Source: Mycobacteriales bacterium (GTDB lineage: Bacteria > Actinomycetota > Actinomycetes > DATLTS01). From it: a stretch of 64,000 bases of DNA. A program made the position numbers and the translations under genes. Positions 3,804 through 8,782 of this stretch are shown here, in pieces. The DNA is taken from contig DATLTS010000041.1 of assembly GCA_035533475.1 (NCBI GenBank), positions 1,070 to 65,069 on the forward strand, in the 5' to 3' direction. How positions within the stretch are numbered: the stretch's first letter is position 1; the number at the start of each line of letters is the position of its first letter. Below the pieces are notes generated by a model. That model did no database searches, had not been told where the DNA came from, and was given only the letters and a program-made list of their open reading frames with translations.

Positions 3804-4082
3804 CTATCTTTCGCGTATGAGAACCAGAATTGCCAACGCGATGCCGATTAGAAATGTGATACAACCCACTGCGATCAAGGCGGCTATGCCATCGGGCACC
3901 TTCCCGGTGACGACACTGGTGATGACCCCTGCCAGAACAGCGGTAGGAACCATGCTCACTGCCGCAAATCCAATGCGACGTCTTTGCTGGGGGGTCGCCG
4001 GCCGAAAAGCCGAACCGCGGCGCCGTCCCTGTCCGTTGGGTTGATCGGGACTTTGAGAGGCAGTCACGACATTGCGCTCCAT
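3804..4082 (-). CDS. small two-helix membrane protein, candidate immunity protein for the RHS toxin
   Basis: 92 aa with two hydrophobic helices (AAVSMVPTAVLAGVITSVV and IAALIAVGCITFLIGIALAILVLI); starts 45 nt downstream of the RHS stop on the same strand; local GC about 50% against about 70% elsewhere. Confidence 0.4.
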   Translation of the reverse strand: MERNVVTASQSPDQPNGQGRRRGSAFRPATPQQRRRIGFAAVSMVPTAVLAGVITSVVTGKVPDGIAALIAVGCITFLIGIALAILVLIRER

Positions 4083-4127
4083 GGCTTGTAGCCGATCCGC
4101 CGAATCCCTAGAAACTGATTCCCGCAG

Positions 4128-7100
4128 TTAACAGAATATTTCGCAAAAACCAACTGCCAACAATCCGACGCCGATTACTCCCAAGCCAATCCCGGTGAAT
4201 GCGGCGAATCCCACACCTAGGCCGGAGACTCCGGCAAAGGACACACCTGCACCTAAGTCGCCACCCGTGATAGCGGCGCCTGCCAAACCAAAGCCAAAAA
4301 CACTCTGACTAACGCCCTCGAAGATTGCCTCGGCTGCACTAAAAGCATTCTGACCAGTTGGATCGGTGAGGTTGATCGGGTTGTCATTCGCGTAGACATA
4401 CGGATCAACTGATGCCGGGTTCGAAATACTCCCCGCGACCGAGTCTTGTTGGGTAAATCTGCCGACGGCCTGGTTGTAATAGCGGTCGCCCATTTTGGCG
4501 AGCCCGGTGACGGTCTGGTAGTAGCTGCTTGCGTATTCCCAGGGGTTGGTGGTGTCGAGGCTGCCACTTTGGCTGGTGACATTGCCATAGGGGTCGTAGG
4601 TATATAGGGCGGTGTCGGTAAGACCGCTCGAACTAGTGACGCCGATGACGCTGCCGAGGATGTCGGGGGTGTAGTAGTTGTTGGTGGAGCCGGATCCGGC
4701 GCCTTGCCGCAGGCCGATCAGGTTGCCTTTGTTATCGCGGGTGAAGTAGATCGGGTCGCTGCGCCCGGTGAGCCCGAGTAGGCCGTTGAGGTAGGTGACG
4801 CCGCCGCTGGCGGTGCGTTCCGACTGGCCGGTGTCGGCGTAGGTGAAGGTGTGCGATCCGACGGCGGTGGTCTGGTTTTTCGCGTTGTAGGTGGACACGG
4901 TCGCACCGGATGGGGGACTGGCGCAGCTGTAGCTGGTGCCGGTGCTGGTCGCACTCCAGCAGGTGTTGCCGTCGCCGTCGTAGAGGTAGTCGGTGTTCCC
5001 GGACGGCCCCGGGTTGGATGTGCAGTTCGAACCGGGGCTGGGAATCGTCCCGCTGCTCGTTCCGGACCAGCAGAGCTGGTCGGCGTTGTTGTAGCCGTAG
5101 TAGACGGTGGAGACGCCGGTGTGGGTGGCCTGGGTGAGATTCCCGACCGCGTCGTAGGTGTAGCCGAGGGTGGTCGTGCCGGTGACCGCGCTGGTCAGCT
5201 GGTCAAGGGCGCTGTAGCCGTAGCTGGTCTTCGTCCCGGCCTGGTCGGTGACTGACTGGATCAGTGCGGAGTCCGTCGACGCGGAGGTGGTGTAGCTGTA
5301 GGTGCGGGACAGGAACGTGGTCCCCAGCGGGCGTTTCGCGGTGACCGAGGTTTCCCGGCCGGAGCTGTCGTAGCCGATCGCGATCGACTCCCCGGACGGG
5401 TAGTTCACCGCGGTGCGCTGGTTGTTCGCGTTGTCGGCGAAACCGGTGCACACCGTGGTGTTCGGGAAACTCGGCGCGGTCGGGTAGGCCGCGCAGGACC
5501 CGCCCGGTTCGGTGAGGTCCCACAGGTTGTTCGACGGGTCGTAGTGGTAGGACACCGTGCCGCCGGCGTCGGTGTAGCTGGTGATGTTGCCGGCCTTGTC
5601 GTAGGTGACCGTCGAGGTCGTGGCGTCGGGGAAGGTCTTCTGGTACACCCGGCCGAGCCCGTCGAGGGTCCAGCTGGTGGTGCCCGTGTTGTCCAACCGG
5701 GACGTCAGGTTACCGTCGGTGTCGTAGGTGTAGCCGATGCAGTTACCGGCGGCGGCGGCCGACGACGAGCAGGGGCTGGCGGTGTACCCGCCGAAGCCGA
5801 GTTCGATGATCCGCCCGAGCGGGTCGTAGAAGTAGCTGGTTTTCTGGCCCTTCCCGTCGGTGACGCTGCTGACCAGGTTGGTGTTCGCGTCGATCGCGAC
5901 GCTGCTCGCCGGACGGGGGGCCGGCGGGGTGATCGAGGACAGGTTGCCGTTGCTGTCATAGCCGTAGGTGGTTGTGTTCCCCCGCCCGTCGGTGGTCGTG
6001 CACAGCTCGCCGGCTTTCCCACCGCACGAGGGCACCCCGCTGTCGCCCTGATAGGCGTCGGACAGATGCGTGCCGCCGGTCTTCCCCGCGCAGCCGGAGG
6101 CCTGCCCGGTGTACACGTCGGTCTGGTTCCCGGCGCTGTCGTAGGAGTAGGCGGTGCAATTGCTCTGCGGGTCGGTCGCGGCGTTCGGCCAGTAGTCGCT
6201 GCTCGGGAATGGCGCGTTGCCACTCGCCGTCGGGTAGCCGAGGTTCGTCGTGGCGCCGCTGGTGCTGCCCTCGGCGGGCAGCTGGATCGACTTGAGGTTG
6301 TTCAGGTTGTCATAGGCGAGGGTGACGGCGTTGCCGGGGCTCATCGCGTCGGTGAACATCGACGGGTGATCATCCCCGCTCCAGGTTCCCTGGTGCGCGT
6401 GCCCGAGCGGATCGGTGACCTTGGTCACCTTCAACTCGTCCGTTTCGAAGGTGTACGTCGTCGCGTGACTGTTCGCATCGGTGACGGTCGCCTCGTGCGT
6501 CGTGTAGTTCGTCGCGAACGTGTCACACGGCGTGGTGGAGGTGTGCGGGTCCGGCCGGCACACGCTGGACACCACACCGTAGGTGTAGGTGATCTCGATC
6601 TGCCGCCCGGCCGGGCTGGTGATCAAATTCAGCTGGTCGTTACTGTCATAGCCGTAGGAGGTGGTCTTGCCGTTCGCGTCCACCACGGACGTCAACAACG
6701 TGTGCCCATCCGGGGCGGTGCTGTAGTCGTAGGTCACCGTGCGGCCCGCCGCATCCGTCGCGGTTTCCAGGTAGCCGTACCCGGCGCCGGCGGACCAGTA
6801 GCTGGTCGTGTACGCCCGGCCTTCGGTGTCGGTCCAACCGTCCAAATCCTCATCCGACGTCGGATCGTTCACGGTGATCGTGTTGCCGTTGCGGTCCTTC
6901 ACCGAAGTCAGCTCGTGTGGGGAGAAGGTCTGCACCAGCCCGCCGCCGTGCCCGGTGAGGGTGTAGCTGTTCGACCCGGACGTGTACACCAAGTCCGCGT
7001 CGATCCCGGCGGGGCCGTGAAATGCGAGCCGTCGCCAGTCGGGGTGAACGTCCACGCCGTGCCGGTCGGACCGTAGTAGGTGATGCTGCCGTCCCCCCAC

Positions 7101-8782
7101 ACCCCCAGCGACGTGTCCGAGCTCGGCGACAGGCCCCAACCCTGACCGAGGTAGCCGGTCAGGTTGTACGGGCCGGCCCCGGAGTTGTACGCGCGGGTCA
7201 GCTGGAAGTTCTGCCCGACCCCGGTCACCGAATCGTCGTTCGCCTCCAGCACCGCGTTGCCGCTGACCACATCGACCTTGACTGTCTCCTTGTCATCGAC
7301 CGGGTAACTCCGGTAAGTCGCGATCGGGCGGTCCCCGGTCGGCATCTGCCAGTACACCGTCAAATACGGGGTCTGCCCGGCCGGCGCGGTGTTGTCGGTC
7401 ACACACAGCTTGCCGGCCGACGACGTTTCGCTCGTCGCCTTGATCAGGAACCCATCCTGCGGGTGGTCACCGTGCAGCCAGGCCGCGACCAGCGCCGTCG
7501 GGTACAGGTGCGCGTAGCCACTCGTCGTGGTCACCGTCGCGGCCACCGTCGGGCCGCCGCTGATCGTGTCCCCACCCGCGTTCGTCCAGCTATTCGTGCC
7601 GTCGTAGGTGTTCCAGGTCACCCCGCTCGGGGTGAACGCCCGCGACAGGCCCAGCGCGGTGATCGACACCGAGCCGGTGTTCGACGTCACGTACAACCCC
7701 AAATCAGCGTTGAGGACCTGCACCTCGGGCGGCAGGTTGCCGGTCACGTCGTAGCTCATCAGCACCCGCTGGTAGGCGGTGTACGTGCCGTCGTAGCCGA
7801 TGCACATCGGGGTTACCCCGTCGAAGTTCGTGCTCGCCTGGGACCCGCCCTCGATGTAGCTGTCGCCGGTGTCGCTCAGGGTCACGCTCGGATCCACCAC
7901 GACCGGGAACACCCGGGCCGGCGCCGCCAGCCAACCCGGATTCACCGTCAGCGTCACCGTCGGCGCGGCGGCGGTACCGCCGAGGGTGTAGGAGACCGGG
8001 CCCGGATCAGCGACCACGGTTGACCCGGAGTCCCTGACCACCGGCGTCGGCAAGCGCAACCGGGCGGTTCCGGTAGCATCCAGCACCTCGAGGCCGCCGC
8101 CGCTGGCCACGAGCCGCGCGCCGCTCGGCAACCCGAGACTGAAGGTGAACCGGGAGCCGGCCGCCGCCGACGCCAAACTCAACGTTTCCTTTGGGCCCTG
8201 CCCCGTCGCCGTCTCGGTCAGCGTCACCCCCGGCAGCGCGTCCGGGTAGGTCACGGTGGCACCCGACACCGACCCGGCGCCGGTCGCCCCCTGCAAAGCC
8301 ATCGACACGCTGAACCCACCGACGGCGACACCCACGGCTCCGGAAGCGTCGCTCGGCACGGTCAGGGCGTACCGGTCCGCCCGATTCCGCCAGCCCGACC
8401 CGGCGGGGTTCGCGATCAACGAGTCGTCGATCTTCTGCCAGGCCCCCGAGGTGTCCCGGTAGTTCACCGGCGTCGGGAAAATCAACGTCTTGTAGGCATG
8501 CCCGGACACGTACGTCCGCGACGTCGCCCGCCGCAGCGAACTCACCTCTCCGTCGCGCGCGACCTGGCCCGAAGTCGGCGTGCCCACCCCCGCAGCCGAC
8601 CCCGTGCTCACCGGCGCCGGCGGCGGTGCCGACGCCGCCCGCGCGGCAACCGGTGCCGCGACCGGCACCAACAGCGCCGACAGCACCGCCCCAACCGACA
8701 ACACCGCCCGGCCAGACAGGCCCCCAGTTAGCACACCCCGCCGCCGGGCGGCGTGACGACCCCCACGAGCAGGCTCAAACAT
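4128..8782 (-). pseudogene. RHS/YD-repeat polymorphic toxin, reading frame broken by a 1-nt frameshift near 7010-7035 (N-terminal segment 6908-8782, C-terminal segment 4128-7139)
   Basis: N-terminal ORF begins MFEPARGG at 8782 (GGAGG upstream) with a signal-peptide-like hydrophobic stretch. C-terminal ORF carries many YD repeats (YTYDAVGNLT, YGYDSNGNL, YSYDSAGNQT), the RHS core end DRYYNQAVGRFTQQDS...DPYVYANDNPINLTDPTG, then a 74 aa Gly/Ala-rich hydrophobic tip. The two frames overlap at 6908-7139 and switch around ggctcgcatttcacggcc. Could be a true pseudogene or a sequencing indel. Confidence 0.7.

Follow-up and report, generated by a model that had tools for sequence, protein, structure and literature searches.

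The 64,000-nucleotide stretch of contig DATLTS010000041.1 analyzed here (the window) carries on its minus strand an RHS gene that ends in a short hydrophobic tip and is followed by a small gene for a predicted two-helix membrane protein. We consider it probable (roughly 0.6) that this locus is an RHS polymorphic toxin, exported by Sec or Tat, whose small membrane-inserting and probably depolarizing cargo is blocked by an immunity protein acting within the membrane, and that the copy in the window has recently been inactivated. This reading draws on sequence comparison and on analogy with characterized systems. The linkage of tip and partner, their parallel divergence and the low third-position GC content (GC3) of the cassette that holds them make up what, at the sequence level, is the signature of a toxin/immunity pair. 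The host is a high-GC soil bacterium, probably of the Actinomycetota. The coordinates of the features are collected in Table 1.

A rare family of RHS tips

The initial annotation of the window described an RHS core that ends in DPTG, followed by a 74-residue Gly/Ala-rich hydrophobic tip, and we find this tip at 4131-4352 with exactly the sequence quoted. It contains 18 Gly (24%), 12 Ala, 9 Phe and 8 Val among its 74 residues, with Gly and Ala together accounting for 40%; four residues are acidic, and Lys, Arg and His do not occur. Neither this tip nor its relatives match any entry in Pfam, NCBIfam, PADLOC or the PDB (phmmer against the PDB at E<=10), which fits the earlier description of a short, non-enzymatic, membrane-type tip.

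An exhaustive phmmer search with the tip against 1.84 billion representative proteins returned two matches, both at the C-termini of RHS proteins. One, protein P0001 of the metagenomic sister copy L003 (ENA ERZ27256799 k141_1065131), has a tip identical to that of the window; the other, P0002 (341 aa; Logan SRR32295236, locus L002), has a tip that is 53% identical. Two further loci emerged from a search with a profile built on two partner proteins: L016 (farmland soil, ERZ1761205), which carries the same tip as L002, and L017 (SRR25437106), with a third variant that is 54% identical to the tip of the window and 79% identical to that of L002. The family comprises three tip variants in total, all from soil or unannotated metagenomes. 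Word-index searches with single sequences, whether of the tip or of the open reading frame (ORF) of 92 residues downstream, missed even the queries themselves; the relatives were recovered by phmmer and by the partner profile.

Three parts of the tip are conserved in the alignment of the variants: an N-terminal amphipathic helix (S-x-AEAIFEG) with a hydrophobic moment of 1.2-1.9, a Gly-rich middle (FGxGL...GG..GA), and a hydrophobic C-terminal helix (TGIGLxVxGxGLLAxGxCExFC). The terminal C-E-x-F-C, encoded at 4131-4148 in the window, is invariant in 3/3 variants, with the stop codon directly after it. It might form a disulfide or serve as a motif related to metals or lipids; a terminal pair of Cys residues also occurs in some Gly-rich microcins. 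An AlphaFold2 (AF2) model of the tip, built on a two-sequence alignment, forms a hairpin of helices spanning residues 2-30 and 40-73 at low confidence (predicted local distance difference test score, pLDDT, of 65.6).

A small membrane protein accompanies every tip

The 92-residue two-helix ORF that had been noted 45 nt downstream of the RHS gene is present at 3804-4082. Hydropathy places its helices at residues ~37-59 and 64-90, and a low-confidence AF2 model at 31-59 and 62-91 (pLDDT 66.8 overall, 70-86 over most of the helices). A homolog of this small protein follows every tip variant (window/L003, L002, L016 and L017). In L002, L016 and L017 the protein is 71 aa long, and its ATG overlaps the stop codon of the toxin (TGATG), which suggests translational coupling. 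The partners of the window and of L002 share 37% identity over 65 residues (pairwise E 1e-9), and a profile search of 5.8 billion sequences recovered the other partners at E 5e-28 and 9e-14. Conserved parts are the cationic PATPxxRRRIG, taken to be cytoplasmic, the two hydrophobic helices, and GIAALIxxG at the opening of the second helix. Searches against Pfam gave only sub-threshold matches to generic families with two transmembrane (TM) helices (DUF2975, E 0.005; Holin-X, E 0.004).

The partner in the window has a 22-residue N-terminal extension (MERNVVTASQSPDQPNGQGRRRGSAF) that is absent from the 71-residue homologs. Gene calls for this partner disagree as well, the JGI call P0004 being 49 aa long and no gene being called for it in L003 (ENA). 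The start codon assigned to the window partner is provisional.

The tips and the partners rank alike in their divergence, with identities of 53/54/79% for the tips and 37/34/52% for the partners, and the partner is the faster of the two. Loci L016 and L002, which are 95% identical at the nucleotide level, allow selection to be followed in a lineage other than that of the window. In the 90 codons that cover the end of the core and the tip, all 10 differences are synonymous (0 nonsynonymous; synonymous divergence, dS, 0.157), and the partner shows 9 synonymous changes against 4 nonsynonymous ones (omega 0.16). The two loci cease to be homologous at the nucleotide level 6 nt past the stop codon of the partner. 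The selection signal and this shared end of homology argue that tip and partner are real, constrained genes that move as one unit ending just after the small gene. With a homologous small gene behind every tip, parallel divergence and purifying selection, the position of a cognate immunity gene that had been assigned to the 92-residue ORF is supported.

A different role for the tip would be that of a mere membrane-translocation module, comparable to the glycine zipper of Tde1, a type VI secretion system (T6SS) DNase, with the actual toxic domain having been removed by a truncation. One report describes glycine-zipper segments that can translocate rather than kill (PMC10240207), and the tip is unusually short. 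All three variants, however, end in the invariant CExFC and a stop codon, with the partner overlapping or adjacent, and this common end and adjacent partner argue that the unit of 74-77 residues is complete and conserved. The 90 codons free of nonsynonymous change at dS 0.157 also speak against a truncated remnant, and we regard such a loss as very improbable.

In L002, the segment 1000-2314 holds the last ~350 RHS codons, the tip and the partner, with a divergent DUF5678 gene directly upstream. Judged by this layout, L002 is an orphan toxin/immunity module that lacks a carrier on the DUF5678 side.

The cassette differs in composition from the rest of the window

The GC content of positions 3800-4400 is 0.557 (tip 0.538, small ORF 0.581) versus 0.689 for the whole window. 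In sliding windows of 600 nt (mean 0.689, sd 0.032), the minimum of all 64 kb falls at the cassette, so the GC dip reported earlier is real, although the figures first given for it, roughly 50% against 70%, overstated its depth. Amino-acid content cannot explain the dip, because the first two positions of Gly and Ala codons are rich in GC. GC3 drops from ~0.9 to ~0.5 from about codon 885 (window ~4490), which lies ~45 codons ahead of DPTG and inside the conserved Rhs core domain, as would be expected of the compositionally foreign cassette that had been proposed. RHS tips are classically exchanged within the conserved core domain. The immunity gene of L002 likewise has a GC3 of 0.60 versus 0.81-0.84 in the flanking genes, and homologous cassettes elsewhere are also lower than their neighbors.

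From GC3 and the borders of the cassette we infer tip swapping. A genome-contig scan with the RHS core recovered a single distant relative, L001 (32% identity, Actinomycetota metagenome-assembled genome), and found no instance of the same RHS core with another tip. Positions 2269-8450 of L001 encode an intact RHS protein of 1939 aa with a different N-terminus that bears three internal repeats of ~200 residues each. Past DPSGL it has an unlike tip of ~160 aa, and a downstream gene of 121 aa overlaps its RHS stop codon.

Since the C-terminal helix of the tip is strongly hydrophobic and resembles a tail anchor, the tip could also serve as a sorting tail or anchor holding the RHS protein in the membrane of its producer, with the small gene encoding an unrelated membrane protein or an anchor chaperone. 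We consider this improbable. The tip sits past the Rhs core and DPxG, which is the position of RHS cargo inside the shell, and an LPXTG motif, a basic tail and any match to a sorting-signal family are all absent from it. The 40 residues ahead of the hydrophobic helix are conserved too (AEAIFEG, GGL, GG.FGA), and a cassette of low GC3 that is tightly coupled to a partner diverging along with it points to a toxin/immunity pair rather than to an anchor.

The RHS shell and its signal-peptide-like N-terminus

The RHS gene (minus strand, 8782-4128) had been read as a single continuous gene. It occupies two reading frames, 8782..6908 and 7139..4128, and is split by a deletion of one nucleotide at 7008. 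The N-terminus of the first frame (MFEPARGGRHAARRRGVL...) is signal-peptide-like, with a hydrophobic core at residues 20-50 and ARA/AS; the segment MFEPARGGRHAARRRGVLTGGLSGRAVLSVGAVLSALLVPVAAPVAARAAS reaches a 19-residue hydropathy of up to 2.2. This frame also contains a DNRLRE domain (NF033679, E 7.9e-21), which is overlapped by CBM96 (PF24517, E 6.5e-9), and a DUF6531 domain (PF20148, E 2.4e-7). Past the frameshift, 33 codons are read out of frame before the stop at 6908-6910.

In the second ORF (7139..4128, 1003 aa), RHS_repeat matches 11 stretches (PF05593, E 1.3e-45), and TIGR01643 detects YD repeats (E 4.5e-26). Relatives of the shell in the PDB are the Rhs proteins 8h8a, 7q97 and 8qjb, and Tse5 (8cp6, E 6.3e-7). 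The Rhs-associated core (...RYYNQAVGRFTQQDSVAG...DPYVYANDNPINLTDPTGQ) ends at residue 930 with ...LTDPTGQ, and its terminal DPTG is, by analogy, a candidate site of aspartyl autoproteolysis of the kind described for Tse5 (PMC9637101). The first motif of the autoproteolysis region is degenerate in the window (QQDSVAG) and canonical in L017 (QQDPIPG).

The RHS gene is disrupted in the window

At the frameshift, the window reads ...ACGGCCCCGCCGGGATCGAC... and L003 reads ...CCCCGTCGGGGATCGAC...; the two frames of the window meet at ...GGCTCGCATTTCACGGCCCCGCCGGGATCGACGCGGAC..., and L003, with its extra G, reads through as ...SHFTAPSGIDADLVYTSGS... The deletion at 7008 is common to three assemblies, namely the window, L005 and L015. 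Contig L005 (ENA ERZ27256799 k141_984624) matches window 6617-20395 at 99.993% identity without a gap, and L015 (JGI Ga0307373_10000005, a 330-kb contig) aligns gap-free, with one mismatch, to window 10352-3329. Both are independent of the window because both differ from it at 8762. We reject a sequencing error, because the three assemblies are separate and concur, and the run involved is merely GGG versus GGGG. Programmed -1 frameshifting is unlikely, since inspection of the site revealed no slippery heptamer. A chimeric assembly of the window might be suspected from the end of L005 at 6617 and from the identity of window and L003 below 6605; we reject it in view of L015, which covers 10352-3329, and L007, which covers 1-6470.

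The sister copy L003 is 97.3% identical to window 8910-3313 and, on a single contig, shows an in-frame TGA in place of the window's TGG (NPGW). In the N-terminal 1773 nt the two copies differ at 106 sites, 68 synonymous and 38 nonsynonymous, giving a dS of 0.154 and a ratio of nonsynonymous to synonymous divergence (dN/dS) of 0.195. This ratio indicates that purifying selection acted on the RHS gene through most of the divergence and that the disruptions are recent. Every difference between the copies lies above 6606, and 6605-3313 (L003 10493-13785) is 100% identical over 3.3 kb. The identical tract spans the distal RHS shell, the tip, the immunity gene and the border of the insertion sequence (IS), and the N-terminal 1.8 kb is 94% identical. 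The pattern suggests that the distal shell and tip cassette recently underwent recombination or gene conversion, or that two strains or loci share the 3' part.

The genes upstream of RHS differ between the two copies, with YajQ in the window and an NB-ARC/TPR gene in L003. Between RHS and these unlike flanking genes, ~300 nt at window 9190-9492 are apparently non-coding and 88% conserved with the upstream region of L003. No Rfam match was found in window 1-12000, which includes this segment, and it could be a shared promoter or leader.

Because the RHS gene is frameshifted, the toxin is most probably no longer made or exported from the window copy. The immunity gene remains intact.

Evidence weighing against an active toxin

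The disruptions raise the possibility that the whole locus is a decaying relic without present function, consisting of an RHS pseudogene, a leftover tip cassette and an unexpressed 92-residue ORF. The frameshift at 7008 in three assemblies, the in-frame TGA of the L003 sister copy, the orphan fragment in L002, and the IS 351 nt downstream would all be expected of such a relic, as would the truncated gene call of 49 aa (P0004) and the missing call in L003. Set against these, the N-terminal dN/dS of 0.195 at a dS of ~0.15 indicates selection until recently, the window, L003, L004, L007 and L015 share identical, unbroken tip and immunity ORFs, and both tip and partner are under purifying selection in another lineage (L016/L002). 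A relic would, moreover, concern the present state of the locus and leave the identity of its parts undisputed. We judge it unlikely that decay accounts for the whole locus, though the chance is appreciable.

Several further observations count against a membrane toxin. The tip had been described as a glycine zipper, and the strict motif was taken as the extended (G/A/S)xxxGxxxG or GxxxGxxx(G/S/T), as defined in PMC12744356. The window tip contains 4 instances versus a mean of 2.1 in composition-matched shuffles (P = 0.17); the L002 tip contains 0 and the L017 tip 2, at mostly different positions. By these counts the strict glycine zipper is neither conserved nor statistically supported, and the term is best taken to describe the composition of the tip and not a family motif. 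A looser chain of 5-6 small-xxx-small residues is present in 3/3 variants, and a glycine heptad ladder is conserved (G54, G61, G68 and G56, G63). The L002 and L017 tips are clearly TM-hydrophobic only in their last ~30 residues and have Asp or Glu in the middle segment. The AF2 models of tip and partner are of low confidence and come from alignments of 2-3 sequences, and the tip has no detectable sequence similarity to any characterized pore former. Finally, no copy lies in a demonstrably intact full-length RHS gene, as the window is frameshifted, L003 has the TGA, L002 is a fragment, and L016 and L017 are cut by contig ends.

Relation to known toxin/immunity systems

The initial annotation had called the tip type uncharacterized. 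This holds for the sequence family, which is new, and not for the kind of system, of which Tse5/Tsi5 and Tox-WTIP are known examples; by sequence, the novelty is confined to a separate and very rare family. In Tse5 (RhsP1, PA2684) of Pseudomonas aeruginosa, as in the window, a hydrophobic, non-enzymatic cargo lies past a DPxG-type autoproteolysis motif (PMC9637101, PMC10684867). Its C-terminal part, Tse5-CT, forms ion-selective pores (PMC9637101). The cognate immunity protein Tsi5 is, like the window partner, a small, adjacently encoded membrane protein with two predicted TM helices (PMC9637101). The RHS cores are detectably related (8cp6), and the shell would shield a greasy cargo in both. 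The Rhs cocoon of Tse5 shields the cytoplasm of the producer, so that membrane-bound immunity alone suffices (PMC12744356), an argument that the arrangement of the window locus matches.

The two systems also differ in several respects. No similarity between the tips was detected, with 0 matches from phmmer against the PDB at E<=10, a set in which the presence of the Tse5-CT chain is unconfirmed, and only the tip's own family returned by the exhaustive phmmer search. Tse5-CT is 149 aa long, whereas the window tip is 74 aa long and has no basic residues. Delivery of Tse5 relies on PAAR-like, VgrG and T6SS components, whereas the window RHS combines a signal peptide with DNRLRE/CBM96/DUF6531. A PAAR domain was not matched in the window RHS (Pfam/NCBIfam), and Pfam identified no T6SS genes among the nearest neighbors (HD-domain gene, IS transposase, YajQ, ferredoxin, Complex I 30-kDa subunit and pyruvate:ferredoxin oxidoreductase, PFOR). 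The host of the window is a high-GC soil bacterium and probably a monoderm, and its RHS gene is frameshifted.

Tox-WTIP (Zhang et al. 2012, PMC3482391) is likewise a small, hydrophobic RHS tip predicted to form pores with two helices, and it has been reported only in proteobacteria (PMC3482391). The RxxR of its first helix and the Wx[ST]IP of its second are absent from all of the tips, which gave no Pfam match at E<=10; the tips contain no Arg, and Trp occurs only in the L002 variant, outside any Wx[ST]IP. The same study predicted two families of two-TM immunity proteins, Imm17 and Imm-CdiI (PMC3482391). The window partner also has two helices, but it lacks WxW and has no profile match to these families.

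The glycine-zipper depolarizing toxins TelE, EsxX and TspA of the Gram-positive type VII secretion system (T7SS; PMC12744356) and CdzC/CdzD of Caulobacter (PMC5380434) resemble the tip in their Gly-rich hydrophobic C-termini, which are thought to oligomerize in the target membrane, and in the use of membrane-embedded immunity against a toxin that arrives from outside. Unlike toxins of the TelE/EsxX type, the window RHS has no match to an LXG/WXG domain (Pfam, NCBIfam) and no T7SS context, and the immunity proteins are unrelated, ExiCD being polytopic and TipE/ExiAB soluble. The ionophores of contact-dependent inhibition (CDI; CdiA-CT EC93 group; PMC11630599) offer a further parallel, with tips that dissipate the membrane potential and small, fast-diverging membrane immunity proteins. 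As in the tip/partner pair, immunity diverges faster than toxin. The CDI ionophores differ in being predicted five-helix bundles with separate entry domains and CdiB/CdiA delivery in Gram-negatives, and no sequence similarity to them was detected.

Class II bacteriocins and class IIa microcins resemble the tip in being Gly-rich and in having a C-terminal Cys pair. The tip does not match this class, since it forms the C-terminal end of an RHS protein, unlike a standalone precursor with a double-glycine leader, and has no Pfam/NCBIfam match. WapA-type RHS toxins are reportedly the subject of Koskiniemi et al. 2013, and the characterized WapA tips are, to our knowledge, nucleases, whereas the window tip would instead be a short membrane peptide. 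In overall design, the window gene resembles these Sec-exported Gram-positive RHS toxins, which have a signal peptide, a wall- or carbohydrate-binding N-terminus, a shell, a polymorphic tip and downstream immunity, and use no injection apparatus (PMC12704120).

Insertion sequence and neighboring genes

The IS adjoins the cassette on its downstream side and defines one border of the low-GC island. Contig L008 (ERZ27256814) shares this left flank and IS, with an HNH-domain gene at the right that replaces the RHS cassette. This layout reflects either an IS-mediated rearrangement between strains or a short-read assembly that joined different IS copies. Promoter and terminator sites predicted in 3300-4400 were no more numerous than expected by chance. 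On the other side of the RHS gene, window 9904-13774 holds YajQ/DUF520, a 4Fe-4S ferredoxin, the Complex I 30-kDa subunit and pyruvate:ferredoxin oxidoreductase. These housekeeping neighbors place the RHS locus at the edge of core metabolism genes, with no obvious island.

Table 1 Features of the RHS locus and the adjoining insertion sequence in the window.
Feature	Position	Strand	Remarks
RHS N-terminal frame	6908..8782	-	Signal-peptide-like start, DNRLRE/CBM96, DUF6531; start ATG at 8782
Frameshift site	7008..7009	-	1-nt deletion versus L003: window GGG, L003 GGGG
RHS/YD-repeat shell and core, second frame	4353..7007	-	PF05593, TIGR01643
Rhs-associated core domain (Rhs_assc_core)	4350..4598	-	TIGR03696, E 2.4e-17, residues 848-930
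74-aa tip, QNAFSAAEAIFEGVSQSVFGFGLAGAAITGGDLGAGVSFAGVSGLGVGFAAFTGIGLGVIGVGLLAVGFCEIFC	4131..4352	-	Follows DPTG; stop codon 4128-4130; predicted membrane-inserting toxin
Spacer, toxin stop to small-ORF start, 45 nt	4083..4127	-	
92-aa two-helix membrane protein, candidate immunity	3804..4082	-	Motifs PATPxxRRRIG, GIAALIxxG
Low-GC island, ~1.2 kb	3453..4650	.	RHS core end, tip, immunity gene and 351 nt downstream; ends at IS
Insertion sequence, 1.69 kb	1766..3452	+	Adjoins cassette; IS-only contigs L009 and L010 define its ends
IS transposase DDE_Tnp_1_4	1886-3262	+	E 3.6e-65
IS terminal inverted repeats, 28 nt	1753-1780 and 3438-3465		

Proposed mode of action and implications

On the reading that we favor, an intact allele would have its RHS protein exported by Sec or Tat, with the RHS shell enclosing the hydrophobic tip until it is released at the DPxG aspartyl-protease site. 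At a neighboring cell, the C-terminal helix of the tip (TGIGLxVxGxGLLAxGxCExFC) would enter the cytoplasmic membrane, where inserted tips may pack against one another by their small-residue faces and form a channel whose ion leak collapses the membrane potential. In the membrane of the producer, the two-helix partner would block insertion or oligomerization of the tip. In the window, where the toxin gene is broken, the intact immunity gene would still protect its bearer against toxin-making kin.

A bolder and more tentative proposal, which we put at somewhat below even odds, is that the tip founds an unrecognized family of minimal (~73-residue), anionic two-helix ionophores housed in the Sec/Tat-exported RHS shells of monoderm Actinomycetota, and that an equally minimal two-helix partner neutralizes them in the membrane by way of PATPxxRRRIG and GIAALIxxG. 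If so, these ionophores would rank with the smallest cargoes known for RHS proteins, each being essentially a bacteriocin-like peptide in an RHS cocoon, and would offer a very compact model of membrane toxin/antidote recognition.

The family is extremely rare, with three variants among billions of predicted proteins, and the window copy is broken, so its practical importance is modest. Should the tip depolarize membranes, the strategy of Tse5, in which an RHS shell ships a non-enzymatic membrane poison, would extend to the Sec/Tat-exported RHS of a soil actinobacterium. At ~73 aa and ~70 aa, with two helices each, the pair is small enough for exhaustive mutagenesis and may serve as a model of recognition within the membrane. 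The locus also illustrates the turnover of RHS genes, with a tip cassette of low GC3, a 3.3-kb identical tract next to an N-terminus that has diverged by 6%, independent inactivations, and an IS at the border.

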